Assembly (NCBI RefSeq): GCF_041660805.1
Contig: NZ_JBAZVP010000020.1
Span: 3,681-67,680 of the forward strand
DNA from: Mucilaginibacter sp.
GTDB lineage: Bacteria; Bacteroidota; Bacteroidia; Sphingobacteriales; Sphingobacteriaceae
Direction of reading: 5' to 3'
DNA length: 64,000 nt
A program made the translations under genes and the position numbers. The notes beneath the pieces are model-generated. The model did no database searches, was not told the origin of the DNA, and was given only the letters and a program-made list of their open reading frames with translations. Of the stretch, positions 39,882-62,773 are shown in pieces; within the stretch, counting starts at the first letter, position 1; the number at the start of each line of letters is the position of its first letter.

Positions 39882-39889
39882 TATATTTG
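39882..39889 (+). promoter_or_regulatory. candidate -7 promoter box TATATTTG at the head of the polysaccharide locus
   Basis: Matches TAnnTTTG, 27 nt upstream of the ATG at 39916. Confidence 0.4.
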
Positions 39890-39915: not shown

Positions 39916-41247
39916 ATGCCTGATCAAATACCACTAAATACCTTTAACTTATTAACGCCGGATAATATAAATATAGCTGTTATAGGCTTAGGTTATGTTG
40001 GTTTACCGCTTGCCGTTGAATTCTCAAAAAAATATTCGGTAGTTGGTTTTGATAAAAAACAGGCTCGGATTGATGAGTTAAACGCCGGCAACGACCGTAC
40101 GCTGGAGATTGATAGCAATGAATTAAAGAAAGTTAAGCGTGCTTCGGGCAGCAATAATGGATTGCTTTTTACATCGGATGTAGGTGATATAAAAAATTGC
40201 AATATCTATATCATATCGGTACCAACACCTACCGACAAGCATAACCGCCCCGACATGCATATGCTTAAAAATGCCTGTGAACTAATAGGATCGGTCATTT
40301 CTAAAGGCGATATTTTCATATTGGAATCAACCGTATACCCGGGTGTGACAGAAGAAATTTGTGTGCCGATCATTGAAAAGATATCAGGTCTTAAACTAAA
40401 CGAAGGTTTTTATGCAGGTTATTCTCCGGAACGGATAAACCCGGGAGATAAGGTGCATACGTTAACCAATATTTTAAAAGTAACATCGGGTTCAACACCT
40501 GAGGCGGCCAATTTTATAAATAACCTGTACGGCACTATTATTACAGCCGGCACGCATAAGGCGCCAACTATAAAAGTAGCCGAGGCCTGTAAGGTTATTG
40601 AGAACTCCCAGCGCGATATTAATATTGCATTTGTTAATGAGCTTTCAAAAATTTTTAACCTGATGCAAATTGATACCCAGGCAGTTTTAAAAGCGGCAGG
40701 TACTAAATGGAACTTTTTAAATTTTAAACCCGGTTTAGTAGGAGGGCACTGTACGGGCGTTGATCCGTACTATCTGGCACAGCGGGCGCAAGAAGTAGGA
40801 TATCACCCGGAAATTATTTTAGCAGGCCGAAGACTTAATGATGGCATGGGTACTTATGTTGCCATGGAAGTTATAAGGCTTATGATTAAGAAGGATATTG
40901 TTGTAAAAAATGCCAATGTTTTAGTATTGGGCTTTACTTTTAAGGAGAACTGCCCGGATGTACGTAACACACGGGTAATTGATATTATTAAAGTTTTAAA
41001 TGATTTTGAAATTATTTGTGACATTTATGATCCATGGGCAAACCCTAAAGAGGTAGCTGATGAGTACCAAATAAATACCATCAATATGTTTGAAAATGTA
41101 AGGGCTAATTATGATGCAATTATATTAGCTGTTGCCCATGATGAGTTTTTGAAAATAGACATCAGCAGTCTAAAAAAGGCACATTCATCAGTAATTTACG
41201 ATATAAAAGCGGTGCTGGATGAGGGTATAATAGATGGGCGTTTATAA
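39916..41247 (+). CDS. UDP-N-acetyl-hexosamine 6-dehydrogenase (TviB/WbpO/CapL type nucleotide-sugar dehydrogenase)
   Basis: 443 aa. NAD motif VIGLGYVGLPLA, catalytic GLVGGHC, and overall TviB-like length and order. Confidence 0.88.
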   Translation: MPDQIPLNTFNLLTPDNINIAVIGLGYVGLPLAVEFSKKYSVVGFDKKQARIDELNAGNDRTLEIDSNELKKVKRASGSNNGLLFTSDVGDIKNCNIYIISVPTPTDKHNRPDMHMLKNACELIGSVISKGDIFILESTVYPGVTEEICVPIIEKISGLKLNEGFYAGYSPERINPGDKVHTLTNILKVTSGSTPEAANFINNLYGTIITAGTHKAPTIKVAEACKVIENSQRDINIAFVNELSKIFNLMQIDTQAVLKAAGTKWNFLNFKPGLVGGHCTGVDPYYLAQRAQEVGYHPEIILAGRRLNDGMGTYVAMEVIRLMIKKDIVVKNANVLVLGFTFKENCPDVRNTRVIDIIKVLNDFEIICDIYDPWANPKEVADEYQINTINMFENVRANYDAIILAVAHDEFLKIDISSLKKAHSSVIYDIKAVLDEGIIDGRL

Positions 41248-41273
41248 GTACATTAATGTTTAAACCTGCAAAA
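41131..41273 (+). repeat. direct repeat copy A (last ~115 bp of the dehydrogenase CDS plus 26 bp of 3' flank)
   Basis: Aligns with 52499-52640. By-eye count: 9 substitutions and one 1-nt indel over about 143 bp. Confidence 0.9.
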
Positions 41274-41367
41274 GTCAGAAGGTTATAATACCTGGTGTGG
41301 TTTTATTTTATTTTTAACTGATTTTTTAATTGTTTCTCAATATTTTTAAAAAAAATAATGGCTTAAG

Positions 41368-42411
41368 ATGCAAGTTTTTACTTTAAAGGTCATAAATCTG
41401 CGTTTTGAAACAAGGGATACACTCACGGTTTCATTCAAGCAACCAGCTTTAAAGAAAATTAAATATCTGGCTGGGCAGTACCTGACCCTTATTTTTCGTA
41501 TCAACGGCCGAAGATATATCCGGCCATACTCGTTTTCATCAGCCCCTGGTGTTGATGCCAATCTTGAGGTTACCATTAAAAGAGTACCGGGAGGAGTTGT
41601 TTCAAACCATATTATAGATCAATTAAAGGTTGATGATCTGGTTGAAGTTATGGAACCTATGGGAGATTTTGTTTTAACTGAAAACAATCTTTTACCTAAA
41701 ACACATATTGTATTATGGGGAGCAGGTAGTGGTATAACTCCGCTCATGTCAATTGCAAAATACGCATTACATAAAAATTTGGCAAATCATGTTACACTTG
41801 TGTTTGGCAACCGTAATGAAGAAGACGTAATTTTTAGCAGTAAAATTGTAGAACTAAAAGAACAATATAAAAACCAATTTTCGGCCATACATTTTTTAAC
41901 ACAAGCTGTAATAGCAAGTAACAATCCTTACGTTGTTCAAGGTCGTATAAACCCGGATAATGTTTTGTCTGTGATGCAGAGCGAGGGTGATATTTATGAC
42001 ACGATACATTATATTTGTGGCCCTGCAGGCTTAAAAGAATCTGTGAAAGCAACATTATCAGAATTGAATATTGCGCCTGAAAAAATATATTCAGAAGATT
42101 TTGAAATATTGCGTGATCCTGCAGAATTTGAAAATATAGTTACAAGGATAGTAACGATTAAAAAGGATGGTTTACGTTTACCCGTTGAGGTAGTTAAAGG
42201 TAAAAGTATTCTTGAGGCTGGTTTAGATGCCATGATTGATATGTCGTACTCTTGCCAAACCGGGAATTGCCTGGTTTGTAAAGGACGTTTAATAAATGGG
42301 CAGGTGAAAATGATAGGTATTGAAAAATTACCTGAAGGTTTGCAGCAACAGGAATGCTTGTTATGCAGCAGTTTCCCGCTTACAGATAATGTTGAAATAG
42401 AAGTTGATTAG
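41368..42411 (+). CDS. FNR-type flavin reductase with C-terminal plant-type 2Fe-2S ferredoxin domain (candidate E3 / CDP-6-deoxy-delta-3,4-glucoseen reductase role)
   Basis: 347 aa. FAD motif RPYSFSS (RxYS), NAD(P) motif GAGSGITP and C-terminal C-x4-C-x2-C...C (SCQTGNCLVCKG...ECLLC). It is the first gene of the CDP-sugar cassette. Confidence 0.75.
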   Translation: MQVFTLKVINLRFETRDTLTVSFKQPALKKIKYLAGQYLTLIFRINGRRYIRPYSFSSAPGVDANLEVTIKRVPGGVVSNHIIDQLKVDDLVEVMEPMGDFVLTENNLLPKTHIVLWGAGSGITPLMSIAKYALHKNLANHVTLVFGNRNEEDVIFSSKIVELKEQYKNQFSAIHFLTQAVIASNNPYVVQGRINPDNVLSVMQSEGDIYDTIHYICGPAGLKESVKATLSELNIAPEKIYSEDFEILRDPAEFENIVTRIVTIKKDGLRLPVEVVKGKSILEAGLDAMIDMSYSCQTGNCLVCKGRLINGQVKMIGIEKLPEGLQQQECLLCSSFPLTDNVEIEVD

Positions 42412-42419
42412 ATTAGAAT

Positions 42420-43193
42420 ATGAAAGTTGTACTATTAGCGGGCGGATTAGGTACCAGACTATCTGAAGAAACTACACTGAAACCAAAACCAATGGTTGAA
42501 ATTGGTGGTATGCCCATATTATGGCATATAATGAAAATTTATTCAACATACGGTTATAATGACTTTATTGTTTGCCTGGGCTATAAGGGGTATGTTATAA
42601 AGGAATACTTTGCCAACTATTTTCTGCATAAATCTGATATAACAATTGATTTAAAAGACAACTCCATAAAGGTGCATGATTCACAGGCCGAACCATGGAC
42701 AATTACCCTTGTAGATACAGGGAATGAGTCCATGACGGGCGGTAGGATAAAAAGAATTAAGCCACACGTAAACAACGAGCCCTTTATGCTAACATACGGT
42801 GACGGCGTTAGTGATGTAAACATTGCCGAACTGGTTAAATACCATAAAAGCCATGGTAAGATGTGTACAGTAACTTCGGTACAGCCATCCGGCCGTTTTG
42901 GTGCATTAGATTTAAATGAAGATATGTCTGTGAAATCATTTTTAGAGAAACCTAAGGGTGATGGTTCATGGATAAATGGAGGTTATTTTGTATGCCAGCC
43001 AGAAATTTTTGATTACATAAAAGACGGTGACAGTACCGTTTGGGAACAAAAACCTATGGAAGAAATAGCCAGTGACGGCCAGATGAAAGCTTACAAGCAC
43101 GATGGTTTTTGGCGCCCAATGGATACGCTGAAAGACAAGCACGATTTAAATGAAATGTGGGATGTTGATAAAGCTTCCTGGAAAATCTGGTAA
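42420..43193 (+). CDS. rfbF: glucose-1-phosphate cytidylyltransferase
   Basis: 257 aa. The N-terminus LLAGGLGTRLSEETTLKPKPMVEIGGMPILWHIMKIY...GYKGYVIKEYFANYFLH is nearly identical in pattern to enterobacterial RfbF/DdhA. Confidence 0.92.
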   Translation: MKVVLLAGGLGTRLSEETTLKPKPMVEIGGMPILWHIMKIYSTYGYNDFIVCLGYKGYVIKEYFANYFLHKSDITIDLKDNSIKVHDSQAEPWTITLVDTGNESMTGGRIKRIKPHVNNEPFMLTYGDGVSDVNIAELVKYHKSHGKMCTVTSVQPSGRFGALDLNEDMSVKSFLEKPKGDGSWINGGYFVCQPEIFDYIKDGDSTVWEQKPMEEIASDGQMKAYKHDGFWRPMDTLKDKHDLNEMWDVDKASWKIW

Positions 43194-43196
43194 TCT

Positions 43197-44291
43197 ATGA
43201 TACAGGATTTAAAAGATGTTTATAAAGGAAAAAAAGTTTTTTTAACCGGGCACACTGGTTTTAAAGGCTCGTGGCTGGTTAAAATATTTAGTTTACTTGG
43301 CGCCGAGGTTAAAGGTTATGCCTTAGCACCAGAGAATGAACTGAACCTTTATAGCATTATAAAAGGTGATGAACTTTGTGACTCGGTAATTGCTGACCTG
43401 CGCGATAGAGCGAAACTAAATGAAGCTGTAGGCAGCTTTCAGCCCGATTTTATATTTCATTTAGCCGCACAGCCCCTGGTAAGGCTTTCTTATCAGATCC
43501 CGTCCGAAACGTTTGAGGTAAACGCTATTGGTACTGCAAATGTGCTTGATGCCATGAGGCTGTTAAACAAGCCTTGTAATGCTGTTTTAATTACTACAGA
43601 CAAAGTTTACCACAATAACGAATGGATTTACCCATATCGTGAAACAGACCGCCTTGGTGGCTACGATCCATATAGTGCGAGTAAGGCCTGTACAGAACTG
43701 GTTATTGACTCGTACCGTAATTCCTTTTTTAATACCAATACTTATAGCACTCATCAAAAAGCAATAGCCGTAGGGCGTGCAGGCAATGTAATAGGTGGTG
43801 GCGATTGGTCTAAAGACAGGTTGATACCCGATATTGTAAAGGCTTTGGCAGCTAATGAAGATATAGAGGTAAGAAATCCAAATTCAATAAGGCCATGGCA
43901 GCACGTACTGGAGCCCTTATTTGGTTATTTATTATTAGGAGCAAAGTTAGCCGGTGATCCAATACATTATTCACAAGCCTATAATTTTGGCCCCGATGCA
44001 AATGACACTTTACCGGTAAAAAAAATGGTTGAACTGGCTATTGCAAAATGGGGTAGTGGCCAGTATTTTACCAATATAAAGGATACCCAGCTGCATGAAG
44101 CCGGTTTATTGAAACTGGATATAAGTAAGGCTATTGATGAATTAAAATGGAAACCTTTATTTAACGCTGAAAAAGCAGTTGAATACACAATTAAATGGTA
44201 CAAGATCTTTTATTCCAATAAAGATATGGCCAGTGAATACACCAAAGAACAGATACTTGCATTTTTAAATAATTTTAATGACAACCAATAA
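43197..44291 (+). CDS. rfbG: CDP-glucose 4,6-dehydratase
   Basis: 364 aa. KKVFLTGHTGFKGSWL, YSASK (YxxxK) and a RfbG/DdhB-like C-terminus. Confidence 0.92.
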   Translation: MIQDLKDVYKGKKVFLTGHTGFKGSWLVKIFSLLGAEVKGYALAPENELNLYSIIKGDELCDSVIADLRDRAKLNEAVGSFQPDFIFHLAAQPLVRLSYQIPSETFEVNAIGTANVLDAMRLLNKPCNAVLITTDKVYHNNEWIYPYRETDRLGGYDPYSASKACTELVIDSYRNSFFNTNTYSTHQKAIAVGRAGNVIGGGDWSKDRLIPDIVKALAANEDIEVRNPNSIRPWQHVLEPLFGYLLLGAKLAGDPIHYSQAYNFGPDANDTLPVKKMVELAIAKWGSGQYFTNIKDTQLHEAGLLKLDISKAIDELKWKPLFNAEKAVEYTIKWYKIFYSNKDMASEYTKEQILAFLNNFNDNQ

Positions 44292-45333
44292 AATTGTTTT
44301 AGAAGATCTGGAGGCAATACGTAATTCAACTATTGATTGGCAGCGCTTTGCTGGTAAAACGGTATTAATTACAGGGGCCAATGGTTTTTTGCCGGCATAT
44401 ATGGTAGAAACCTTACTTTATATTAATGCAAAAATAGGTATTGATGTTAAAGTGATTGGGTTGGTGCGGAGCATAGAAAGAGCTAAAAAGCGGTTTATTG
44501 AGTATGCCGGAGATAAAAATCTTACATTTATTGAGCAGGATGTAAGTAAGCCTGTTAAAATTGATGAAAATCAAACAATAGATTTTATAGTACACGCTGC
44601 AAGCCAGGCAAGCCCTAAGTACTATGGCACTGACCCGGTTGGTACCTTAAGCGCTAACGTGCTTGGTACGCTAAACCTAATGACCCTTGCGCGCGAAAAA
44701 AATATAGAATCGTTCTTGTACTTTAGTTCGGGAGAAGTTTATGGGCAAATTGATAACGAACATAACCCTGTTAAGGAAGACTATTATGGATACCTTGATC
44801 CTATGCAGGTACGTTCCTGCTATGGTGAGAGTAAAAGGATGGGAGAGAACATTTGCGTAAGTTATTATAAGCAGTACAACATAAGCGCTAAAGTTGTACG
44901 CCCCTTCCATACCTATGGGCCTGGCATGCAATTGGATGATGGCCGGGTATACGCCGATTTTGTTGCAGATATTTTGAATGAACGCAACATTGAAATGAAA
45001 AGTGACGGATCTGCAAAACGGTCATTTTGTTATTTAAAAGATGCTACTATTGGTTTTTTTATAGTTTTATTGAACGGTACCCCGGGCGAAGCTTATAATG
45101 TAGGCAACCCTAATGAAGAACATAGTATTTTAGAACTTGCAGAAGCCATAATTAAATTAGGCAATGCTAGTTTAAAGGTTATAAAAGTTGATATTACTGC
45201 TGATAACCAGTATTTGAAAAGCCCTTTATTACGTAATACCCCTAATATTGATAAACTGCTGGTTTTAGGATGGAGCCCGCAAACCGATATTATGACCGGG
45301 TTTGAAAGGACCATTAAAAGTTACCTTGTATAA
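44278..45333 (+). CDS. extended SDR (NAD-dependent epimerase/dehydratase/reductase) acting on a nucleotide sugar
   Basis: 351 aa. GANGFLPAY glycine motif and YGESK catalytic YxxxK. Overlaps the rfbG stop by 14 nt. Confidence 0.8.
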   Translation: MTTNKIVLEDLEAIRNSTIDWQRFAGKTVLITGANGFLPAYMVETLLYINAKIGIDVKVIGLVRSIERAKKRFIEYAGDKNLTFIEQDVSKPVKIDENQTIDFIVHAASQASPKYYGTDPVGTLSANVLGTLNLMTLAREKNIESFLYFSSGEVYGQIDNEHNPVKEDYYGYLDPMQVRSCYGESKRMGENICVSYYKQYNISAKVVRPFHTYGPGMQLDDGRVYADFVADILNERNIEMKSDGSAKRSFCYLKDATIGFFIVLLNGTPGEAYNVGNPNEEHSILELAEAIIKLGNASLKVIKVDITADNQYLKSPLLRNTPNIDKLLVLGWSPQTDIMTGFERTIKSYLV

Positions 45334-45352
45334 ATAAGATTTAATACTACCA

Positions 45353-47170
45353 ATGAAAATAAGTGATGCTATAGCCGACTTTTTAGAAGAAAAAGAGATA
45401 AGGCATGTTTTTGGAATTATTGGCGCAGGCAATGCACATATATTCGATTCGATATACAGTAAAGGTTATACTGAAATAGTTTGTGTGCATCATGAACAGG
45501 CTGCCTGTATGGCTATGCAAACTTATTATCGTATTACCGGTAAAGTTACTGCAGTGCTTTTAACAACAGGTGCAGGTTCTACAAATGGTGTAACCGGTGT
45601 AGTTAGCGCCTGGGCCGATTCAATACCCGGCCTGATCATTTCAGGAAATGAGAACTCTAAATTTATCGATCTGCATAAAGATTTGCGTATGTGGGGTGTT
45701 CAGGGATATGACAGTTCGCTAATGGTTGATAAAGTGACCAAATATGCAGGCCGCGTTTTAGATCCTAAAGATATTACCAGGGAATTAAACAAAGCTTACG
45801 ATATTACTACAGAAGGCCGCCCGGGCCCGGTTTGGCTGGATATTCCTATGAATATCCAATCGTCGGTAATTGATGAAACTGCTATTTTGCCCTATGAAAA
45901 ACCAGAAGCTATTAATAATACTAATGACACTTTAAGCAATCAGGTTGGTGAAATTGTAGCTGATCTTAAAAAAGCTAAGCGCCCGCTGTTATGGCTTGGC
46001 CATGGTATTAGGCTGGCCAATGCAGTTGATTTGTTAGAACCTCTGTTAGATCAGTTAAAAATACCTGCACTGGTAACCTGGGCTGGTATAGATATGGTAG
46101 ATTCATACCACCCGCTTGTATATGGCAGGGCGGGCACGTATGGGCAAAGGTGCGCTAATTTTGTACTGCAAAATTGTGATTACTTATTATGCATAGGCAC
46201 ACGCATGGCTATACCACAAATTGGTTATGAAATAAACGAGCTTGCACGCGATGCACAAATTGCAGTGGTAGATATTGATGAACACGAACTGTTAAAATAC
46301 AAAGCAAGGTACAAGCATAGTGTAGCCGCCGATGCAAATTTGTTTTTAACCGAATTGTTGGAACAAACAACAAATTTTAAAACAGATATAAGTCAATGGG
46401 TAACTATATGCGATAAATACAGAACAGAATATCCATGGGTAAATTCATCTGACCATCCGGATAAAGAAGGTTTTATTAATTCATATCCATTTATGGATAA
46501 ATTAAATGCCCATTTAAAGGATGATCAAATTATAGTTACTGATATGGGTACTGCTTTACTGAGTGGCCATCAGGCATTAAAATTAAAAAAAGGCCAGCGC
46601 TTAATGACATCTACAGGTTTAGGTGAAATGGGATATGGCCTGCCGGCTGCTTTAGGTGCATCATTTGCTACAAATAAAGGTGAAGTAATTTGTCTCAATT
46701 GCGATGGTGGTATGATGATGAACCTGCAGGAACTACAAACTATGGCACATCATCAGTTACCAATTAAGCTGTTTATATTTAATAACGATGGTTATTTAAT
46801 GATAAAGCATACGCAGAAAGCATTGTTTAAGGGCAGGGCTGCCGGTACAGACCAAAAATCGGGAGTAAGCTGCCCGGATTTTACTGCTTTGGCAGAGGCG
46901 TTTAAATTTAAAAGTTTCCAGATAAGAACCTGGGAAGATTTTGATGCATATATCCCTCAGATACAGGCCCATAATGGCCCTGTAATATGCGAAGTATTTA
47001 TGCATCCGCAGCAAACATTTGTGCCAAAATTATCTTTAGCAATTCAAAAAGATGGAACATTAATATCTCCGCCACTTGAAGACCTTTCACCATTTATCTC
47101 AAGAAAAGAACTTAAAGCAAATATGCTGAGTGGTTTACACTCAAAATCACTTGAAATTGAGGTGCAATAA
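45353..47170 (+). CDS. thiamine-diphosphate enzyme of the acetolactate-synthase large-subunit fold (YerE-like sugar C-branching candidate)
   Basis: 605 aa with three-domain AHAS-like architecture. The N-terminal Pyr domain carries the catalytic Glu (VCVHHEQAA). The C-terminal ThDP motif is CDGGMMMNLQEL...NNDGY. Confidence 0.8.
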   Translation: MKISDAIADFLEEKEIRHVFGIIGAGNAHIFDSIYSKGYTEIVCVHHEQAACMAMQTYYRITGKVTAVLLTTGAGSTNGVTGVVSAWADSIPGLIISGNENSKFIDLHKDLRMWGVQGYDSSLMVDKVTKYAGRVLDPKDITRELNKAYDITTEGRPGPVWLDIPMNIQSSVIDETAILPYEKPEAINNTNDTLSNQVGEIVADLKKAKRPLLWLGHGIRLANAVDLLEPLLDQLKIPALVTWAGIDMVDSYHPLVYGRAGTYGQRCANFVLQNCDYLLCIGTRMAIPQIGYEINELARDAQIAVVDIDEHELLKYKARYKHSVAADANLFLTELLEQTTNFKTDISQWVTICDKYRTEYPWVNSSDHPDKEGFINSYPFMDKLNAHLKDDQIIVTDMGTALLSGHQALKLKKGQRLMTSTGLGEMGYGLPAALGASFATNKGEVICLNCDGGMMMNLQELQTMAHHQLPIKLFIFNNDGYLMIKHTQKALFKGRAAGTDQKSGVSCPDFTALAEAFKFKSFQIRTWEDFDAYIPQIQAHNGPVICEVFMHPQQTFVPKLSLAIQKDGTLISPPLEDLSPFISRKELKANMLSGLHSKSLEIEVQ

Positions 47171-47179
47171 TTATTCGAA

Positions 47180-48064
47180 ATGAGTAAATTAAAAGTAGCC
47201 ATATTAGGCAGTGGAAACATCGGGACAGACCTGCTGATTAAAATTCAACGTTCTGAACATCTTGATTGTGTACTTTTTATAGGCAGGAATCTTTCTTCTC
47301 CAGGTATGGCAAAAGCTATCAGCCTGGGCGTAAAGGTATCCGACCAAAGTATAAATGCTATTTTAAAAGATCCTGATTGTTGCGATTTAATATTTGACGC
47401 TACATCGGCTAAAGATGCACAGCACCATTGGAACATACTTGAAAAGCTGGGAAAAATAGTAGTAGACATGACCCCTGCAAAAATAGGCCGCCTTTGTATC
47501 CCGGCTGTAAACCTGAACGATGCCATCGCGCTGCGAAATGTAAATATGGTAACATGCGGCGGGCAGGCATCTATACCCATCGCTTACCTTATTGGCCAAA
47601 CACACCCCGAAGTGGAATATATAGAGGTGGTATCCAGCATTGCATCGCGCAGTGCCGGGCCGGCTACACGGTTAAATTTGGATGAGTACATTGAAACTAC
47701 AGAAGAAGGCATACGCATGTTCTCTGGCGCTAAGAAGGCCAAGGCTATTTTAAATTTGAACCCGGCTAACCCCTGCATTGACATGCAGACTACTATTTTT
47801 GCAAAAGTATCCAATCCAAATATCGAGGCATTGACACTTGCTGTTGAAAACATGATAAAAAGCATTAATACATACGTACCAGGTTACCAGTTGCTGGTAG
47901 CACCAATATATGAAAATGGCCGTATAGTAGTAATGGTAAAAGCACAGGGGCTAGGCGATTATCTGCCTAAATATGCAGGCAACCTGGATATTATCAATTG
48001 CGCGGCTATTGCTGTGGCAGAGGAGTATGCAAAAAAACAACAGGAAGGTAACTTAATAAACTAA
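47180..48064 (+). CDS. acetaldehyde dehydrogenase (CoA-acylating), DmpF/MhpF/BphJ family
   Basis: 294 aa. LKVAILGSGNIGTDLLIK, the catalytic-Cys motif NMVTCGGQA and YLPKYAGNLDI are colinear with DmpF as I recall it. Confidence 0.88.
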   Translation: MSKLKVAILGSGNIGTDLLIKIQRSEHLDCVLFIGRNLSSPGMAKAISLGVKVSDQSINAILKDPDCCDLIFDATSAKDAQHHWNILEKLGKIVVDMTPAKIGRLCIPAVNLNDAIALRNVNMVTCGGQASIPIAYLIGQTHPEVEYIEVVSSIASRSAGPATRLNLDEYIETTEEGIRMFSGAKKAKAILNLNPANPCIDMQTTIFAKVSNPNIEALTLAVENMIKSINTYVPGYQLLVAPIYENGRIVVMVKAQGLGDYLPKYAGNLDIINCAAIAVAEEYAKKQQEGNLIN

Positions 48065-48066
48065 TA

Positions 48067-49008
48067 ATGAAATTGACTGAGTTGAAAGAGCTATTTTCAA
48101 ACGGAGAGATTAGCAAAATGGATTATATTGATAATATGCATAGCCTGCATTTATTACTGTTTGACTATACAGAATTCTTAAAAAAATCTGACATTTCTAA
48201 AATAACTATTCAGGACGATTTATTAATAATGACCTCCCGTGAAACTGATTATCATAAAGGTGGGTTGAGTTTTTATTGTGACTTATTGGATAAAAGGAAT
48301 ACGCCTATAGAGGTTCTGAATTTTGGCACCTATGAACCGGAAGAATCGGCTATGCTATACCGCATTATTGAAGAAAATTACACCGTATTTGATATAGGCG
48401 GCAATTTAGGCTGGTATACTAATCATATCGCTCCTTTATTAACAGAAGGAGAAATATATGCTTTTGAGCCCATACCAGAAACTTTTGAAAAGCTCGTTAA
48501 AAATGTTCAGCTAAATGGCTTTGATAACATTACATTAGAAAACTTCGCTTTTTCAGATAAGCAGGATAAAATTAAGTTTTTCTATTCTCCGGCTATGCCC
48601 GGTGCATCTTCGTCACAGAATATAACAGGTGGCAATAATATGCAAGAATTGGAATGTATTACAAATACGGTTGATAATTATGTCGCAGATAATAAAATCA
48701 GCAAATTAGATTTTATTAAATGTGATGTTGAGGGAGCAGAGTTTATGGTGTTTAAAGGCGCTAAAAATACTATTCAAAAATACCATCCTATTGTTTTTTC
48801 AGAAATGCTGCGAAAATGGTCGGCTAAATTTAACTATCATCCCAACGATATAATTAACTTTTTCCGTGAGTTAGGTTATGAATGTTATACTGCCAATCAA
48901 AAAGGTTTGGTTGCTTTTGATATTGTGGATGAAAACACAATAGAAACAAATTTTTTCTTTTTACATACTGATATTCATAAAGAAAAAATTAAACAATTGT
49001 TAGCATAA
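48067..49008 (+). CDS. FkbM family SAM-dependent methyltransferase
   Basis: 313 aa. SAM motif VFDIGGNLGWYT, plus YAFEP and IKCDVEGAE typical of FkbM. Inserted between the DmpF-like and DmpG-like genes. Confidence 0.8.
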   Translation: MKLTELKELFSNGEISKMDYIDNMHSLHLLLFDYTEFLKKSDISKITIQDDLLIMTSRETDYHKGGLSFYCDLLDKRNTPIEVLNFGTYEPEESAMLYRIIEENYTVFDIGGNLGWYTNHIAPLLTEGEIYAFEPIPETFEKLVKNVQLNGFDNITLENFAFSDKQDKIKFFYSPAMPGASSSQNITGGNNMQELECITNTVDNYVADNKISKLDFIKCDVEGAEFMVFKGAKNTIQKYHPIVFSEMLRKWSAKFNYHPNDIINFFRELGYECYTANQKGLVAFDIVDENTIETNFFFLHTDIHKEKIKQLLA

Positions 49009-49053
49009 TACTGAAAATATCAAATGATAATCAGTTAATGAACCGTGCATTAA

Positions 49054-50061
49054 ATGAAACATATACTTATAAGTGACCCTACATTAAGAGATGGTAACCA
49101 CGCCGTTTCGCATCAGTTATCAGCTAAACAAATAGCTGTATACTGCGAAGCTGCGAACAAAGCGGGGGTACCAATTGTTGAAGTTGGGCATGGCAATGGT
49201 TTGGGGGCATCTTCATTACAGGTAGGCGAAAGCCTGGAAACTGATGAGGTATTGCTAACTACCGCACGCAAATATCTTACTGAAAGCAAGTTAGGTATAC
49301 ATGTAATACCCGGTTTTGCTACCATTCAGCGCGATTTAAAAAAAGCAATTGAATGGGGGGTTGATGTTATACGTGTAGCATCGCACTGTACAGAAGCAGA
49401 TATTACGCAGAGGCATATTGGTTACTCGCGCGAAAAGGGTAAAGAAACCTATGGGGTATTGATGATGACCCACATGGCGTCGCCTGAACTTTTAGTAGAA
49501 GAGGCTCATAAAATGGAGCTTTACGGCGCCGAAGGGATCATTATAATGGATTCTGCAGGTGCATATTTACCACTGGATGTTACAGAACGCATAACCGCTT
49601 TGGTTGATGGACTGGCTATTCCGGTTGGTTTTCATGGTCACAATAATTTGGGCATGGGCATAGCTAATAGCATTGCTGCTATTCAGGCTGGCGCTACTAT
49701 GTTGGATGGTACCGCACGGGGCTTTGGCGCAGGTGCTGGTAACGCTCAGTTAGAAGTATTGATAGCCGTTTTAAACAAAATGGGTTATACAACGGGAGTA
49801 GACCTGTATAAAATCCTGGATGCGGCAGATATTGCCGAGAAAGAAATTATGCCGTTGGTACCGGTAATTAAATCGGAAAGTGTAGTGAGTGGATTAGCAG
49901 GCGTGTTCTCGGGCTTTTCAAAACATGTTAACCGGATATCTAAAGAATATAATGTTGACCAGCGCGATGTTTACTTTGAACTGGGTAAGCGTAAGGTAAT
50001 AGCAGGGCAGGAAGATCTGATAATAGAGGTTGTTTTAGATATTGTTAAACGCCAGAATTAA
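49054..50061 (+). CDS. 4-hydroxy-2-oxovalerate aldolase family (DmpG/MhpE/BphI class II pyruvate aldolase)
   Basis: 335 aa. ISDPTLRDGNHA (Asp and His equivalents of DmpG D18/H21), HGHNN (H200/H202), GAGAGNA and GQEDLI are colinear with DmpG. Confidence 0.88.
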   Translation: MKHILISDPTLRDGNHAVSHQLSAKQIAVYCEAANKAGVPIVEVGHGNGLGASSLQVGESLETDEVLLTTARKYLTESKLGIHVIPGFATIQRDLKKAIEWGVDVIRVASHCTEADITQRHIGYSREKGKETYGVLMMTHMASPELLVEEAHKMELYGAEGIIIMDSAGAYLPLDVTERITALVDGLAIPVGFHGHNNLGMGIANSIAAIQAGATMLDGTARGFGAGAGNAQLEVLIAVLNKMGYTTGVDLYKILDAADIAEKEIMPLVPVIKSESVVSGLAGVFSGFSKHVNRISKEYNVDQRDVYFELGKRKVIAGQEDLIIEVVLDIVKRQN

Positions 50062-50062
50062 A

Positions 50063-51115
50063 ATGAAGAAAGAAGCTATAAACGATATAAAGGCCGATTG
50101 CAGGCAATCTTTAGCCGGATACACCAGTTCGCTGGAATGCCTGCGCGATCAAAGCATTTTAGTTACAGGTGGCACCGGCTTTATTGGTAAATGGATAACT
50201 GAAGTGGTTTCTGTATTAAACGATGAAGAAGGCTTTAATATAAAGCTCTATCTTTTGGCCCGCGATATGGAAGATTACCGCGCAGAGGTGCCGCATTTGG
50301 CCGCTTTAAAGTACGTTACATTAATAGAACAGGATATTAGAAATGTAAGTGTATTACCGGAGGATGTACGCTGGATAATCCATGCTGCAGGTTCGCCTGA
50401 TAACCGCACCCATGTAAGCAATCCGCTTAAAACCATCGAAACTTTTTACAGGGGTACACAAGCCTTGTTAGATGCCTGCCTGCGTTTACAGGGGCTAAAC
50501 AAATTTGTGCATTTAAGTTCAAATACAGTATATGGCCATCCTTTAAAATCGTCAGAATTTGGTATTAAAGAAAACGAGATAGGGGTGTCTGACTGTAATA
50601 CTGTAAATGCAACATACAGCGAAGCCAAACGTATGGCCGAGACGATATGTGCGGTATACCGCAATCAGCAAAAGCTACCAATAGTTATAACTCGTCCGTT
50701 CTCATTCATTGGCCCTTACCAGGATCTTGAAAAACCGTGGGCTATTAATAATTTCATCAGAGACAGTATTTTAAACGGCCCTATCAGAATATTAGGTAAC
50801 GAGAATACTGTACGCAGCTATATGTATGGCAGTGATATTGCCTGTTGGTTACTAATGGCGCTTGCCAAAGGTAAAACCGCGGCCACATATAACATAGGCG
50901 GAGATCAGCCTATATCATTGAAAGACCTTACCGGTAAAATCACCTCCAATTTTTCTAATAAAATTGATGTGCTTTTTAAATATTCCAAAGCTTATCCGGC
51001 GCAATCATCTATATCCATACCAGATACTTCGGCTATAAAAAACGACCTTGGCGTTAAGCAACAAATCAGCTTTGAATCGGCGCTAAAAAGAACAATTGAC
51101 TGGTATAAAAAATAA
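50063..51115 (+). CDS. extended SDR (NAD-dependent reductase/epimerase; YerF-like ketoreductase candidate)
   Basis: About 350 aa from the ATG at 50063. The ORF-track start at 50042 overlaps the aldolase gene. GGTGFIGKW and YSEAK (YxxxK) are present. Confidence 0.8.
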   Translation: MKKEAINDIKADCRQSLAGYTSSLECLRDQSILVTGGTGFIGKWITEVVSVLNDEEGFNIKLYLLARDMEDYRAEVPHLAALKYVTLIEQDIRNVSVLPEDVRWIIHAAGSPDNRTHVSNPLKTIETFYRGTQALLDACLRLQGLNKFVHLSSNTVYGHPLKSSEFGIKENEIGVSDCNTVNATYSEAKRMAETICAVYRNQQKLPIVITRPFSFIGPYQDLEKPWAINNFIRDSILNGPIRILGNENTVRSYMYGSDIACWLLMALAKGKTAATYNIGGDQPISLKDLTGKITSNFSNKIDVLFKYSKAYPAQSSISIPDTSAIKNDLGVKQQISFESALKRTIDWYKK

Positions 51116-51156
51116 GGCAGGAACTAAACCTGTGTTACATAAACTAAAATATTACA

Positions 51157-52464
51157 ATGCAACCTTTTAAAAATATCGACTCAAATATTAAAGATCAGTT
51201 ATCTGCTATCATTAAAAAGAACACCACTAAGGAAATCATTGCGGGTAAAAATTATATACCGGTAACCGGTAAAATAGTGGATGAAGAAGATATTTTATAT
51301 GGAGTTGATGCCGCATTAGATGGCTGGTTGACCGCTGGCCGTTTTGCTAATTCTTTTGAATACGATTTTGCCAAATACTTTGGAGCACCCAAAGCATTAC
51401 TGGTGAACTCTGGCTCATCTGCCAATTTGGTAGCCTTTTACGCACTTACTTCTACAAAATTGGGCGACCGTGCAGTAAAACCGGGTGATGAGGTGATTAC
51501 GGTTGCCGCGGGTTTCCCAACTACTGTAAACCCAATGATCCAGTTTGGTGCTATCCCGGTGTTTGTTGACGTTGATATTGCAACACATAACGTAAAAGCC
51601 GAAGATATTGAGGCGGCTGTATCACCCAAAACAAAAGCAATAATGATTGCGCACTCCCTGGGCAACCCATTTAACCTGGATGAGGTGATGCGTGTAGCAA
51701 AAAAATATAACCTTTGGGTAGTTGAGGATGACTGTGATTCGTTAGGTGCAACTTACAGAGGGCAGAAAACCGGTACGTTTGGTGACATATCTACTTTCTC
51801 TTTCTATCCGGCCCATCACATTACTATGGGCGAGGGCGGTGCCGTTTTAATAAATAATCCTGAGCTGGCCAAAGTTGCCGAAAGTTTTAGGGATTGGGGC
51901 CGCGATTGTTATTGCGAACCCGGAAAGGATAATACCTGCGGATGCCGTTTTTCTCAACAATTAGGATCATTGCCTTATGGGTACGATCATAAATATACTT
52001 ACTCGCATATTGGGTTTAACTTAAAAGTTACTGATATGCAGGCGGCATTTGGTGTATCACAATTAAAGAAAATTGATTATTTCGTACAGCGTAGAAGGGA
52101 AAATTTCAAGGCCCTTTATGAACGTATGAAAGAATTGGAAGAGATATTTATCCTACCTGAGCCAACTTTGCATAGCGATCCATCATGGTTTGGCTTTCTT
52201 TTAACCTTACGGGAAGGAGATGCCGCTGACAGGCATATGTTAGTGCAACATTTAGAAGAAAAGATGATTGGTACCCGCTTATTGTTTGGGGGTAACTTAT
52301 TACGTCAGCCTGCTTATGCCAACATAAATCATCGTACAATTGGTAACCTTGAAAATACTGATATTATTATGAATCAGTCTTTTTGGCTGGGGGTTTGGCC
52401 AGGGTTAAATGAGAGCCACTACGATTATATGTTGGACGTTATTAAGGCTTATATTAATAATTAA
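51157..52464 (+). CDS. rfbH: CDP-6-deoxy-L-threo-D-glycero-4-hexulose-3-dehydrase (E1; PMP/2Fe-2S DegT-family enzyme)
   Basis: 435 aa with a DegT/DnrJ/EryC1 fold. His replaces the Schiff-base Lys (SFYPAHHIT). Cys spacing is exactly C-X57-C-X1-C-X7-C (DDC...[12 protein letters not shown]). Confidence 0.92.
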
Positions 52465-52498
52465 GTGAGTATTAGAAGGTGAAGATTATTGAAAACTT

Positions 52499-52640
52499 GT
52501 TGCCCATGATGATTTTAAAAAATAAACATCAGCAGTCTAAAAAAGGCACATTCATCAGTAATTTACGATATAAAAACGATGTTAGATGAGGGTATAATAG
52601 ATAGGCGTTTATAAGTACTTTAATGTTTAAACCTGCAAAA
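52499..52640 (+). pseudogene. direct repeat copy B: degenerate 3' fragment of the UDP-HexNAc dehydrogenase gene
   Basis: About 93 percent identical (by eye) to 41131-41273. The reading frame equivalent to the parental gene hits TAA after VAHDDFKK, so it is not coding. Confidence 0.85.
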
Positions 52641-52646
52641 TTATCT

Positions 52647-52654
52647 TAACTTTG
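52647..52654 (+). promoter_or_regulatory. candidate -7 promoter box TAACTTTG for the export genes
   Basis: Matches TAnnTTTG immediately after repeat copy B, 53 nt upstream of the ATG at 52707. Confidence 0.4.
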
Positions 52655-52706
52655 CCCAAATTTAAATAAAGCTATCTTTATAAGATAATAGATTTAAAAA
52701 CCAAGT

Positions 52707-55226
52707 ATGAGACTACTGTACAAAGCCAATTTTAAATATAAATATTTCCTTTTATCGGTTTTATGTTGTTTTGCAATGTTGCTTGTAAGGCCGGCATTCG
52801 CCCAAACTATTCCTTCTAACCTGTCTAATGTAAATGTTAACGAGTTATCTGATGCTCAGATAAGGCAAATAATGCAGCAGGCGCAAACAAATGGCTTAAC
52901 CGATGACCAGTTAATGCAAACTTTAGAAGATCGTGGCCTGTCATCAGAACAATCAAAAATACTGCAAAACCGTATTAACGGTATTAAAAAGGCTAATGGT
53001 GCAACCAATGATAAACCCTTAAAATCAAAGCAGGAGGACAATGAATTTCAATCACAAAGCAGGGGGTTGAATTATAAACCTGATACCCTTATTGATACAC
53101 AAAGAACCCAAAAGATAGTGAACATGTTTCAACCAAAAATATTTGGTGCTGATATGTTTAAAAATACTAATTTAAAGTTTGAGCCTAATCTAAAAATAGC
53201 CACACCTGTAAATTACATTGTGGGCCCCGAAGATCAATTAAATATCAGCGTTTATGGTAACTCTTTAGTAAACTGGAAGCTTGATGTATCGCCGGAAGGT
53301 AATGTTAATATACCCGGCGCTGGTATATTGAATGTTGCAGGTAAAACTATTGAACAGGCTACCGCATCAATAAAAAGTAAATTAATTGCAAATAATTATG
53401 CAATTGGCAGGGGTACAGACGTGCAGGTCAGTTTGGGTAATATCCGGAGTATAAAAGTAATAATGGTAGGAGAGCTTGTAAAGCCTGGTACTTATACACT
53501 ACCATCATTGGCAACGGCATTTAATGCTTTGTCTTCTGCAGGCGGGCCAAATGATATAGGTTCATACAGAAAAATAGAAATAATAAGAAATAATAGGGTT
53601 ATAAGAACTTTAGATATTTATGATTTCCTGGTTAAGGGCAGTCAGAAAGATAATATTTCATTACAGGATCAGGATGTAATACGTGTGCCATCTTACCGTA
53701 TCCGTGTTGATTTAAGAGGCGAAGTAAAAACGCCCGCACTATTTGAGGTTTTACCCGGCGAAAATTTAGATGATGTTATCAGATTTTCCGGAGGTTTTTC
53801 TGACCAGGCGTACACTGCACGCATAAAGGTTACACAAGTGAGTGATCAGCAACGCCGTATCACCGATGTTTTTGAAAACGACTATAAAAACTACATCCCG
53901 CTGCGCGGTGATAAATATGTAGTTGACAGGATACTAGACAGATATACTAATCGTGTAACTATTTTAGGCGCAGTTTTCAGACCCGGTGAATTTGAATTGC
54001 AAAACGGATTAACTGTATCACAATTAATTAAAAACGCAGGTGGTTTAAAAGAGGATGCCTTTACGGGGCGGGGAAGTATTATCAGATTAAATACTGATAA
54101 TTCAACACAGCAGCTTTCATTTAATGTAAATGATGTGTTAAATAAGGCTTCGGCAGATATACGTTTGCAAAGAGAAGATAGTGTAACCATATCATCAAAA
54201 TTTGATCTGCGTAATCAATACAAGATCACTATTAAAGGTGAAGTAAGAAAGCCCGGTGATTTTAATTATGCCGATAGCATGAAAGTTGCCGATCTTATAA
54301 TCAGGGCCGGAGGCTTTACAGAAGGAGCAAGTGCAAAACGTATTGAAGTATCGCGCAGAGTATTTGACAGTGATCCAAGAGCGATAAACACTAAAGTTGC
54401 ACAAGTTTATACCGTTAATGTTAGTGCCGATCTTAAAACGGAGGATACAAATTTTTCATTGGAGCCTTATGATATAGTTTCTGTTTACAGTTTACCGGGA
54501 TATGAAACACAAAAAACGGTTAAAGTTGAGGGTGAGGTGATATATCCGGGTTGGTATACGATACAAAAGAAAAATGAAAAAATTTCTGATGTGATTGCAC
54601 GTGCGGGTGGCTTAACACAATCGGCAGATGTTGAAGGCGGTAGCCTTAAACGTGATAATGCAGCAGTATTAGGTATAGATAAAACTAAAATTGATACAAA
54701 CGCACTAAACAAAGAGCGTACTGACCGTTTAAGAAGGCTTCAACGAACTTATAAAGATTCAACAACTACTGATACAACCCAATTAAGAAATAATTATGTA
54801 GGTATTGATCTTAAAAATATATTACTTAAACCCGGTGCAAATCAAGATCTTATTTTAGAGAATGGAGATGTCTTAAGGGTACCTAAACAACAGCAAACAG
54901 TTAGAGTGAACGGCGAAGTGCTTTACCCAAGTGCAGTAGTTTATACTAAAGGGAAAAGTTTTAGAGGTTTTGTTCTGAATGCCGGTGGGTTCTCACCCAA
55001 TGCTTTAAAAAGCGGAGCATATGTTGTTTATCCTAATGGAACGGTTAAGGGTACAAGAAAATTCTTATTTTTTAATAGTCATCCCAGTGTTAAACCCGGC
55101 AGTGAAATTTATGTTCCTAAGAAGCCTGAAAAGAAAGGAAACACTACTCAGGAAATTTTAGCTTTTACAACAGGTTTAGCTTCATTAGGAGCGATTATAT
55201 TAGGAATATTAAACTTATCAAAGTAA
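52707..55226 (+). CDS. wza: outer-membrane polysaccharide export protein (Wza-like, multiple SLBB domains)
   Basis: 839 aa with a signal peptide. Poly_export motif YIVGPEDQLNISVYGN, then several repeats of the SLBB pattern (G.V..PG.Y.......L.D.I..AGG), and a C-terminal hydrophobic helix. Confidence 0.85.
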   Translation: MRLLYKANFKYKYFLLSVLCCFAMLLVRPAFAQTIPSNLSNVNVNELSDAQIRQIMQQAQTNGLTDDQLMQTLEDRGLSSEQSKILQNRINGIKKANGATNDKPLKSKQEDNEFQSQSRGLNYKPDTLIDTQRTQKIVNMFQPKIFGADMFKNTNLKFEPNLKIATPVNYIVGPEDQLNISVYGNSLVNWKLDVSPEGNVNIPGAGILNVAGKTIEQATASIKSKLIANNYAIGRGTDVQVSLGNIRSIKVIMVGELVKPGTYTLPSLATAFNALSSAGGPNDIGSYRKIEIIRNNRVIRTLDIYDFLVKGSQKDNISLQDQDVIRVPSYRIRVDLRGEVKTPALFEVLPGENLDDVIRFSGGFSDQAYTARIKVTQVSDQQRRITDVFENDYKNYIPLRGDKYVVDRILDRYTNRVTILGAVFRPGEFELQNGLTVSQLIKNAGGLKEDAFTGRGSIIRLNTDNSTQQLSFNVNDVLNKASADIRLQREDSVTISSKFDLRNQYKITIKGEVRKPGDFNYADSMKVADLIIRAGGFTEGASAKRIEVSRRVFDSDPRAINTKVAQVYTVNVSADLKTEDTNFSLEPYDIVSVYSLPGYETQKTVKVEGEVIYPGWYTIQKKNEKISDVIARAGGLTQSADVEGGSLKRDNAAVLGIDKTKIDTNALNKERTDRLRRLQRTYKDSTTTDTTQLRNNYVGIDLKNILLKPGANQDLILENGDVLRVPKQQQTVRVNGEVLYPSAVVYTKGKSFRGFVLNAGGFSPNALKSGAYVVYPNGTVKGTRKFLFFNSHPSVKPGSEIYVPKKPEKKGNTTQEILAFTTGLASLGAIILGILNLSK

Positions 55227-55234
55227 GTTAACTA

Positions 55235-56317
55235 ATGAATAATCAAGAAAATATTAAGACAGATTTTGATGGTATTACTTTAAGAGATTGGCTTTATAAA
55301 TTACGCAATCTTTGGATTTATCTGTGTACTAAATGGCTTTTACTTTTTACTGCATGTATTTTAGGAGGCATTTTAGGCTTTACCTATGCTTTGTTTGAGA
55401 AGCCGATTTACAAAGCAGAACTTAGTTTTGCACTTGAAGATGAGAAATCGTCAGGCGGAGGAATTGGTGCTGCCTTAGGTTTAGCTAGCCAATTTGGAAT
55501 TGATTTGGGTGGAAGTGGGGGTGGGGCGTTTTCAGGTGATAACTTGTTAATGCTAATGAAATCTCGTTCAATGGTGGAGAGTGCATTATTAAGCCCTGTG
55601 TACGTTAATAAAAAGCAACAAACATTATTAGAGCTTTATATATCATATAATAATCTTCGGAAAGGTTGGAAAAATAATGTCCAATTGAAAAACATCCAAT
55701 TTTTATTACGCACCGAACGTTCCAAATTTACCATACAACAAGACAGTGTTATGGGCAGCATTTACAATAAAATAGTTTCATCAAATTTATCTGTAGATAA
55801 GTTTGACAAAAAATTAACTATAATTACGGTTGCTGTTAAGTCTGAGAATGAGTTATTTTCAAAACAATTCACAGAGGCCTTAGTGAAGACAGTATCCAAC
55901 TTTTATATAGAAACTAAAACAAAAAAATCTACACAGAATGTTCTAATACTACAACGTCAAACAGACTCGGTAAGGCGTGAGTTGAATGGAGCAATTAATG
56001 GTGTTGCAACATCAGTAGATGTTAACCCAAATGCAAACCCAACATTACAGATTTTAAGGGTTCCATCCCAACGACATCAAGTTGATGTTCAGGCAAACCA
56101 AGCTATTTTAACTGAATTAGTTAAAAATCTTGAGATTTCTAAAGTTTCTTTGAGACGTGAAACACCTTTAATACAAATAATTGATAAACCAATATTGCCG
56201 CTTGAAAAAAATAGACTTGGAATAGTTAAGGGAATTATTTTGGGTGGGTTCTTATTTGGATTTTTATTTACATTGTATCTGGTCATTTCTAAAGCAATCA
56301 AAGATGTTATGATTTAA
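55235..56317 (+). CDS. Wzz-like polysaccharide chain-length determinant (no kinase domain)
   Basis: 360 aa. N-terminal TM followed by PIYKAELSF, a long periplasmic helical region and a C-terminal TM (GGFLFGFLFTLYLVI). Confidence 0.75.
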   Translation: MNNQENIKTDFDGITLRDWLYKLRNLWIYLCTKWLLLFTACILGGILGFTYALFEKPIYKAELSFALEDEKSSGGGIGAALGLASQFGIDLGGSGGGAFSGDNLLMLMKSRSMVESALLSPVYVNKKQQTLLELYISYNNLRKGWKNNVQLKNIQFLLRTERSKFTIQQDSVMGSIYNKIVSSNLSVDKFDKKLTIITVAVKSENELFSKQFTEALVKTVSNFYIETKTKKSTQNVLILQRQTDSVRRELNGAINGVATSVDVNPNANPTLQILRVPSQRHQVDVQANQAILTELVKNLEISKVSLRRETPLIQIIDKPILPLEKNRLGIVKGIILGGFLFGFLFTLYLVISKAIKDVMI

Positions 56318-56631
56318 ATACAATTAAATGTAGTAGGTCGTTTATAAATGAAACAATCGTTAATAGTCGTGTTTTTGTTCTACTTTTTACTTTGTTAACT
56401 TAGCTACAGTGGGCATGTAAAAGCATTATTAAAATCCTATTAAAATAGCACCGCGTTGGTTGTATTTATGATGTATTCACGCCTAATGCCCAATTCTTAG
56501 TTAAATCTTACTAAGGTCTTCACCCTGAATGCAATGTCAGGAAAAAATAATGGACAGCTATATAATTGGTTGATTATTTGAATAAATTAATAAATGTACA
56601 ACAAGAAGAATCAACAAAACAACATTTGAAT

Positions 56632-57420: not shown

Positions 57421-57474
57421 TATTGAATTAGATTTTGAACGAATTAGTTATCAAAAGTTAAGTATATACATTCG

Positions 57475-62772: not shown

Positions 62773-62773
62773 T

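Follow-up and report, generated by a model that had tools for sequence, protein, structure and literature searches.

The O-antigen clusters of Salmonella enterica contain wzy remnants in B1 and D1, a partial wzy duplication in D3 and, in D2, an H-repeat remnant at the D1/E junction (PMC3715488). In such clusters, dead fragments of polysaccharide genes at the borders of blocks record past reshuffling, including that of dideoxyhexose (ddh) blocks. A comparable case is described here in a 64,000-nucleotide (nt) stretch of DNA, hereafter the window, from a member of the soil Bacteroidota genus Mucilaginibacter (assembly GCF_041660805.1, contig NZ_JBAZVP010000020.1, positions 3,681 to 67,680 of the forward strand). 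In this locus an 11.2-kb module of sugar-nucleotide genes stands between two copies of the 3' end of a dehydrogenase gene, with the decayed end of a second gene, wzz, at its left border. The repeats are probably a passive scar, left when a polysaccharide locus of the Wzx/Wzy type was rearranged long ago in several steps. Unlike the Salmonella clusters, the joints carry neither an insertion sequence (IS) nor an H-repeat, the remnant repeats, in direct orientation, the end of the intact gene next to it, and the module and wza-wzz have apparently swapped order within one locus.

The content of the module recalls the erwiniose cluster of Pectobacterium atrosepticum. Erwiniose is a C4-acyl-branched 3,6-dideoxy sugar whose pathway has been proposed and partly demonstrated; it involves the thiamine diphosphate (ThDP, also TPP) enzyme ErwE, the reductase ErwF, the BphI-like aldolase ErwI and the BphJ-like acetaldehyde dehydrogenase ErwJ, and the Erw genes adjoin genes for a cytidine diphosphate (CDP)-linked 3,6-dideoxy-4-keto-hexose (PMC9306805). 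By domain content only, the Mucilaginibacter module has the same enzyme set, namely a TPP enzyme, a DmpG-like aldolase, a DmpF-like dehydrogenase, reductases of the short-chain dehydrogenase/reductase (SDR) type and ddhA-D-like genes, but it lies in the Bacteroidota and has an extra FkbM-type methyltransferase.

For the rearrangement itself, two general processes are relevant. The tandem duplication-random loss model is best known from mitochondrial genomes, and is formally the same as Campbell-type re-integration of an excised circle. Homology-facilitated illegitimate recombination occurs in natural transformation, and its typical documented events delete, rather than duplicate, recipient DNA.

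The duplicated gene end and the ancestral gene order

Coordinates refer to the window, and all features given with them lie on the forward (+) strand. The gene whose end is duplicated encodes an intact uridine diphosphate (UDP)-N-acetyl-hexosamine (TviB-like) dehydrogenase of 443 amino acids (aa; 39916-41247) with the N-terminal, central and C-terminal UDPG_MGDP_dh domains of Pfam. It is preceded by a Bacteroidota-type TAnnTTTG -7 box (39882-39889; pattern scan). The protein matches Mucilaginibacter sp. MFA6086642.1 at 100% identity and its counterparts in syntenic relatives at about 90%; the wza product of the window corresponds to MFA6086653.1, eleven accessions away.

Copy A (41130-41273) comprises the functional last 117 nt of the dehydrogenase coding sequence, including the stop codon, and 26 nt of the ancestral dehydrogenase-wza spacer. 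Copy B (52498-52640) comprises a pseudogene remnant of the same 3' end with the same 26 nt of spacer. The two differ by nine substitutions and a 1-nt indel and are 93% identical. A repeat search returned the ungapped core of 128 nt (41146-41273 and 52513-52640, 93% identical), and alignment with MAFFT together with a per-base listing showed that the 1-nt indel carries the repeat 5' to 41130/41131 and 52498/52499, so that it spans 143 versus 142 nt. Successive identical runs along the copies measure 14, 4, 0, 6, 50, 2, 2, 1, 18, 15 and 21 nt, the longest perfect block thus being 50 nt. Chance similarity is excluded, because the pair is the sole direct or inverted repeat of at least 45 nt in the entire window. 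A longer 5' end for copy B (52470-52497 against 41100-41129) was dismissed, the similarity there being at chance level.

Copy B is the only other dehydrogenase fragment in the window (tblastn), and it is damaged: it has a frameshift at 52512, an in-frame TAA (reading VAHDDFKK-TAA) and four non-synonymous G-to-A changes. These findings agree with a first-pass annotation of the stretch, which had described a direct repeat of about 143 bp with nine substitutions, one 1-nt indel and some 93% identity, and had taken the second copy to be non-coding, with a TAA after VAHDDFKK, and to be followed by a promoter box and wza.

The sequence to the right of copy B identifies the older arrangement. The interval 52641-52706 holds the rest of the ancestral dehydrogenase-wza spacer, with a TAACTTTG -7 box (52647-52654) that begins 6 nt after copy B, and the wza leader; it is base-for-base conserved in relatives L002-L006, and wza starts at 52707. 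Six relatives (L002-L006 and L169) were retrieved by exact-protein look-ups of the closest dehydrogenases (88-92% aa identity). The window and all six share the upstream order GH20-PliI-DUF72-BatA-DHOase-hyp-DUF4199-PhyH-AraC-dehydrogenase, and in each relative the dehydrogenase is followed by a spacer of about 95 nt with the conserved TAACTTTG box and then by wza. In a spacer alignment, copy B and all DNA rightward of it are colinear with the relatives' dehydrogenase end, spacer and wza, including the invariant CTGCAAAATTATCTTAACTTTGCC, and the homology of copy A to the relatives' spacer ends after CTGCAAAA (41273). The ancestral order of dehydrogenase, promoter and wza, as the first-pass annotation had supposed, is thus borne out. 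Since the six syntenic relatives have the dehydrogenase, the TAACTTTG box and wza in this order, copy B is the original gene end, decayed and still attached to its old right-hand neighbour.

The wzz remnant and the two joints

Between copy A and ascD, the first gene of the module, lies a second remnant (41274-41366). It is a decayed wzz 3' end, with stops and a frameshift, and ends in ATAATGGCTTAA one base before the ascD ATG. This end, ATAATGGCTTAA-G-ATG, resembles the ...IMA* and ...IMN* termini of Wzz, which in relatives are followed directly by ascD. The first hint of the remnant was a blastn match of the 94-nt spacer before ascD to the wzz end of relative L006. For an anchored test, end-to-end alignments to 26 wzz 3' ends were made with the 81 nt that finish with the TAA (41364-41366), and the scores were summed. 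The remnant scored 133 versus 164 for the genuine wzz end of the window. Dinucleotide shuffles gave a mean of -160 +/- 69 and a maximum of 63, so that none of 1000 reached 133 (z = 4.25), nor did any of 383 GC-matched real windows.

Less constrained searches gave weaker signals. Unanchored local-alignment shuffles yielded p values of only about 0.003-0.04; a scan of the window with an nhmmer profile built from three wzz 3' ends missed the remnant, and one built from 26 found it colinear (model 16-98 on 41285-41365) at E = 6.3. The remnant is 72% identical to the L006 wzz end and 57% identical to the end of the resident wzz, true wzz ends being mutually 55-71% identical. Given this difference, 41274-41366 is the decayed end of an L006-like wzz allele and not a recent copy of the resident gene. 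It directly adjoins ascD, as wzz does in about 20 genomes, and so marks the former site of the module directly after wzz.

At the other side of the module, a 33-nt spacer (52465-52497) follows the rfbH stop, and its 3' end is the right-hand illegitimate joint. The two outer joints, between 41273 and 41274 and between 52497 and 52498, are both illegitimate, and no terminator, Rfam family, inverted repeat, tRNA, recombinase or transposase is associated with them. The locus therefore reads dehydrogenase (ending in copy A), then wzz remnant, module and 33 nt, then copy B, promoter, wza, resident wzz and glycosyltransferases.

Both novel joints are also present in contigs of an independent k = 31 assembly of SRR18595301, of which three were examined: L170 (32995-37929), L007 (41222-52555) and L001 (52589-59043). 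L007 matches the window with 0 mismatches and L001 with one. The ends of L007 and L001 fall exactly where 31-mers become shared by the two copies (41252-30, 52525+30 and 52619-30), as predicted for a genome that has both copies and the module. L170 stops at 37929 inside a PhyH-like gene. This break is not accounted for by any repeat in the window and may be due to heterogeneity among strains, to poor coverage or to a repeat in another part of the genome. Protein look-ups of the exact PhyH, AraC and dehydrogenase products returned no record for the SRR18595301 sample.

Age and decay of the copies

With the six relatives as outgroups, the differences between the copies could be polarised. Four changes are specific to copy A (TTA to TTG, TTA to CTG, which counts as two, and a non-coding T to A), i.e. 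three synonymous and one non-coding. Six are specific to copy B (the 1-nt deletion, one T to A and four G to A at first codon positions), none of them silent. Per neutral site the rates are alike, 4 of about 51 in copy A versus 6 of 143 in copy B (Fisher p = 0.29). These small counts fit copies that were approximately identical at the time of the event, with purifying selection acting thereafter on A and neutral decay on B. Because the changes are silent in A and damaging in B, a long coexistence of the copies is indicated. Neutral divergence amounts to about 0.04-0.08 per copy, and synonymous divergence (dS) from the closest relatives known is about 1. The event is thus lineage-specific though by no means recent, and the ten module genes were kept intact throughout. 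On this sequence evidence copy B has the properties of a gene remnant: coding has been lost, colinearity with the ancestral locus is retained, and selection appears relaxed in the remnant versus purifying in the intact copy.

Content and provenance of the module

The ten-gene CDP-3,6-dideoxyhexose module, of the erwiniose (acyl-branched sugar) type by its Pfam content, occupies 41368-52464. Genes 1-5 encode an ascD/ddhD-like reductase, a glucose-1-phosphate cytidylyltransferase, a CDP-glucose 4,6-dehydratase, an SDR and a ThDP enzyme; genes 6-10 encode an acetaldehyde dehydrogenase, an FkbM methyltransferase, a DmpG/BphI-like aldolase, a further SDR and an rfbH/ddhC-like dehydrase. The Pfam domains comprise TPP_enzyme N, M and C, HMGL-like with DmpG_comm, AcetDehyd-dimer and two SDRs, alongside the ascD-, rfbF-, rfbG- and rfbH-like genes. 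The branching functions are grouped at 45353-51115, where the ThDP enzyme, the DmpF-like acetaldehyde dehydrogenase, the FkbM methyltransferase, the DmpG-like aldolase and the two SDRs lie. With this content, the pathway probably leads to a C4-branched 3,6-dideoxyhexose that is O-methylated, instead of a simple sugar of the abequose or tyvelose type.

All ten open reading frames (ORFs) between the copies are intact and encode sugar-nucleotide enzymes; Pfam finds no integrase, transposase or recombinase among them, in keeping with the first-pass annotation, which had noted that no integrase or transposase was present. The contrast in k-mer and codon usage which that annotation had proposed as a check was run, and the composition of the module proved native. 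GC content at third codon positions (GC3) is 0.34, versus a background of 0.38 +/- 0.05; tetranucleotide distance is 0.15-0.19, versus 0.13-0.18; and codon usage is likewise within background. Identity to L006 is 85% for ascD, 91% for rfbF and 91% for rfbH, alongside 90% for the dehydrogenase and 89% for wza, and the corresponding dS values (ascD 0.59, rfbF 0.94, rfbH 1.40) compare with a backbone range of 0.51-1.29. Because composition lies within background, and identity and dS to L006 are at backbone level, the module is drawn from the clade's own gene pool and is not a compositionally foreign island.

Related modules occupy a consistent position. In L006, ascD-rfbF-rfbG-SDR-TPP-rfbH follows directly after wza-wzz, and an rfbH scan of species-representative genomes, with the window proteins mapped onto 80 loci, found the order wza-wzz-module in about 20 Sphingobacteriaceae and Flavobacterium genomes. 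The metagenome locus L097 has the entire canonical string dehydrogenase-wza-wzz-module, with the aldolase and acetaldehyde dehydrogenase genes. The identical ten-gene order occurs in L010 (M. agri) and in several metagenome loci.

Other variants were seen in the same survey. Many metagenome loci of Bacteroidota, and M. agri (L010), have the erwiniose-type layout. In L040-L042 (about 4500-15100) a short ascD-rfbF-rfbG-rfbH module stands 5' of wza-wzz, in the order rpoC-glf-DUF3467-wzc-module-wza-wzz, and there too it follows a Wzz-domain gene. These loci were considered as instances of the same event and rejected, since the context is another one (rpoC-glf-wzc-module) and there is no dehydrogenase remnant. 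L041 is labelled a Janthinobacterium lividum metagenome-assembled genome, yet its locus is Sphingobacteriaceae-like and the contig is probably mis-binned.

wza, the resident wzz and the downstream block

To the right of copy B lie wza (839 aa, with Poly_export and SLBB domains by Pfam) and a divergent wzz allele (360 aa), together spanning 52707-56317. wza is 89% identical to its L006 homologue at the aa level (dS 0.95); wzz is 68% identical, with dS saturated. For the resident wzz (55235-56317) no allele above 71% identity occurs in 5.8 billion proteins, and the neighbouring wza and the dehydrogenase have relatives at about 90%; wzz is hypervariable in this clade. GC3 is 0.26 in wza-wzz and 0.26 in the downstream glycosyltransferase block, and the tetranucleotide distance is 0.24-0.38 over 52-64 kb; both parts deviate from the background, the glycosyltransferase/wzx block most of all. 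The remainder of the window (56318-64000), which encodes glycosyltransferases, wzx and an EpsG-type polymerase, has a GC content of 0.28-0.32, a GC3 of about 0.25 and a tetranucleotide distance two to three times background, as is typical of serotype-specific regions that have been exchanged. No fetched locus contains a homologue of the 248-nt gap after wzz (56318-56565).

Two of the syntenic relatives show further peculiarities. In L006 an inserted minus-strand GH127 (beta-L-arabinofuranosidase-like) gene separates AraC from the dehydrogenase (7757-9784); neither the window nor the other relatives have it. In L169, the closest relative by dehydrogenase (92%), wza is broken into three ORFs of 130, 325 and 233 aa (11482-13535), representing either a decaying export gene or frameshift errors of metagenome assembly.

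Proposed history of the rearrangement

Any history of the locus has to accommodate the observed repeat, the ancestral order, both remnants, the native composition and divergence of the module and the lack of mobile-element genes. The canonical order of the clade is dehydrogenase, promoter spacer, wza, wzz, CDP-sugar module and glycosyltransferases. In the window, the dehydrogenase and wza are separated by a block that comprises the ten-gene module together with the final ~93 nt of a wzz gene at its left end and 33 nt at its right. The left joint connects spacer position 26 with a site about 93 nt short of the wzz end; the right joint connects a site 33 nt beyond rfbH with one that lies 117 nt before the dehydrogenase gene terminates. 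Since the wza-bearing segment begins 143 nt before the dehydrogenase segment ends, those 143 nt are present twice. Copy A would then have been kept under selection as the working gene end, with copy B and the wzz remnant left to decay.

Two routes would require the fewest steps, and both entail two illegitimate joints and DNA of a second strain. The involvement of a second, closely related strain follows from the failure of the wzz remnant to match the resident wzz. By one route, a tandem duplication running from the dehydrogenase 3' end to just after rfbH (equivalent to a Campbell-like re-integration of an excised circle) would have created the right joint; the first wza-wzz would next have been deleted, giving the left joint and the wzz remnant, and the second module copy would then have been lost. 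The swap of the adjacent wza-wzz and module, the pseudogene leftovers and the duplicated boundary segment are what tandem duplication-random loss predicts. That model does not account for the mismatch between the remnant and the resident wzz or for the absence of any relic of a second module copy. To duplication and loss must therefore be added a later allele replacement, by recombination with another strain, that exchanged wzz and the DNA downstream of it. Such a replacement is plausible in view of the hypervariability of wzz and the deviant downstream composition.

By the other route, one-sided, homology-anchored illegitimate recombination would have brought in DNA of a close relative. Homology in the dehydrogenase or upstream of it would have served as the anchor, and the other end would have been joined illegitimately inside the resident gene end. 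This route shares with homology-facilitated illegitimate recombination the single anchor, the illegitimate other end, which can leave recipient sequence overlapping and duplicated, and the dispensability of recombinase genes. It differs from typical events of that kind in that recipient DNA has been duplicated, and in that the donor would already have had to bear the deletion from the spacer to the wzz end.

The move probably had a transcriptional consequence. The only intergenic TAnnTTTG boxes in the region are those at 39882 (dehydrogenase) and 52647 (wza); a pattern scan of 41248-41367 found none, so that none precedes ascD, and a terminator scan found no terminator-like site between the dehydrogenase and ascD or after rfbH. 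A sigma-70 promoter scan is uninformative for Bacteroidota. Having been moved out of the wza operon, the module is thus probably transcribed by read-through from the dehydrogenase promoter, with wza keeping its own.

Several observations weigh against this reconstruction. Neither the immediate pre-rearrangement genome nor one sharing the rearrangement was found, so that the order of steps is a reconstruction; an exact scan of metagenome contigs with the lineage-specific 31-nt repeat core gave 0 matches, and a metagenome scan with the ThDP enzyme gave nothing closer than 82% and no strain with an earlier arrangement. No scar of a second module copy was found in the 248-nt gap after wzz, and the 33-nt right spacer has no homologue 3' of rfbH in 40 relatives. 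The backbone-level dS of the module fits an intragenomic origin and a within-clade transfer alike. Finally, the one base that differs between the window and the SRR18595301 contigs might mean that the copies still exchange sequence, in which case the repeats would not be purely passive.

Alternative explanations

The topology of the locus is exactly what a single crossover of a circle with 143 bp of homology would yield, and the first-pass annotation had proposed that the cassette entered by way of the gene end, either by a Campbell-type crossover or by cassette exchange. Arrival as a foreign cassette by horizontal transfer, through such a circle or a site-specific integrative element, could also explain the 7% divergence of the copies, as donor versus recipient alleles, and the wzz remnant, whose dissimilarity to the resident wzz implies DNA of another strain. 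There is, however, no recombinase, no tRNA target and no att-like inverted repeat, and the composition and dS of the module are those of the clade's own genes. Two illegitimate joints (spacer to wzz end, and from after rfbH to inside the dehydrogenase) would have to precede the formation of the circle, so that this history is no simpler. The copy B changes are moreover all damaging (0 of 5 silent; P of about 0.24 in a small sample), as expected if B was a pseudogene throughout the divergence. Entry as first proposed is therefore not upheld, given the illegitimate joints, the wzz remnant, the native composition, the backbone-level dS and the post-wzz position of the module in relatives, and a foreign arrival is unlikely. 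The locus is a rearrangement of the canonical order, probably with DNA of a close relative, although circle integration, formally equivalent to tandem duplication, may have been one of its steps. Two classes of element were rejected: an integrative element (prophage, integrative conjugative element or genomic island) with att repeats, since integrase and recombinase are lacking and composition and divergence are not foreign; and a transposon or IS insertion, since there is no transposase, there are no terminal inverted repeats, and the duplication is 143 bp versus an expected 2-15 bp.

Whether the repeats act today is a separate question. The first-pass annotation had envisaged RecA-mediated loss of the module as an on/off switch of a surface epitope in the population. 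In a full version of this rival, a crossover between A and B would precisely excise the 11.4-kb module at an appreciable rate and restore dehydrogenase-promoter-wza; cells without the branched dideoxy sugar epitope would arise, and the repeats would be maintained for useful heterogeneity. The copies are indeed direct and share a 50-nt perfect block. The hybrid dehydrogenase formed by recombination 3' of the frameshift would be intact, with only three residues altered (A to T, V to M and G to R), and the native promoter context would be restored. The SRR18595301 contigs bear on the matter through a single base. At 52603 (L001 position 15), the sole mismatch in the 22.7 kb of the three contigs, the window has A and the contig G; this is one of the ten sites diagnostic between A and B, and G is the copy A state, as gene conversion between the copies would produce. 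G is also the ancestral state, however, and may simply be the unmutated allele, so that the difference could reflect gene conversion, strain polymorphism or the latest G-to-A decay mutation of copy B.

Deletion between the repeats is physically possible and would be irreversible, since the excised circle has no replication or integration functions and there is no recombinase. Repeats of 143 bp at 93% identity are a poor substrate for RecA, further penalised by mismatch repair. The 7% divergence with its pattern of decay speaks for long persistence without homogenisation or loss, and the downstream glycosyltransferases would lose their donor sugar upon excision. The contig ends of SRR18595301 fit a genome with both copies and the module, and no deletion-junction contig is found among its assembled contigs. 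With an irreversible deletion, ten differences between the copies and no such junction contig, the proposal of a switch is unsupported, and a population-level deletion switch is quite improbable. The same doubtful standing attaches to the idea that the copies are still recombining, with G at 52603 as a gene-conversion tract or a piece of a hybrid junction, and that, should crossover occur as well, the population continuously and irreversibly sheds cells without the erwiniose-type module; were it true, the locus would be a recombinase-free, one-way device for surface-antigen diversification, born of a rearrangement scar.

An assembly artefact, in which the repeat would have led to a chimeric join of contigs from two strains in a metagenome-derived assembly and the real genomes would have either dehydrogenase-wza or the module at another place, is highly improbable. 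In its favour, the k = 31 assembly of SRR18595301 is fragmented, and repeats in the window do not account for at least one of its breaks (L170 at 37929). Copy B is nevertheless contiguous with rfbH on L007, which extends to 52555 and covers the joint and the B-specific sites at 52512-52525, and with wza on L001, which starts at 52589 and includes the B-specific T at 52619; the left joint and the wzz remnant lie inside L007. A chimeric join would not, moreover, create a frameshifted and independently mutated second copy.

Significance

The locus represents an ordinary kind of evolutionary scar, with no new mechanism and no evidence that it acts as a switch; frequent excision, if true at the level of reads, would raise its interest. 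What is new in the Bacteroidota is an unusually well-delimited scar, with two remnants and no IS element. For annotation, it follows that such short remnants should not be called genes and that module order is not to be taken as fixed. The locus is also useful for inference on serotype evolution. The branched-sugar pathway would have been shifted from the wza operon into the dehydrogenase transcript. Together, the two gene-end pseudogenes fix both breakpoints to the base, and indicate that polysaccharide loci in the Bacteroidota can reorder their modules without mobile-element machinery.

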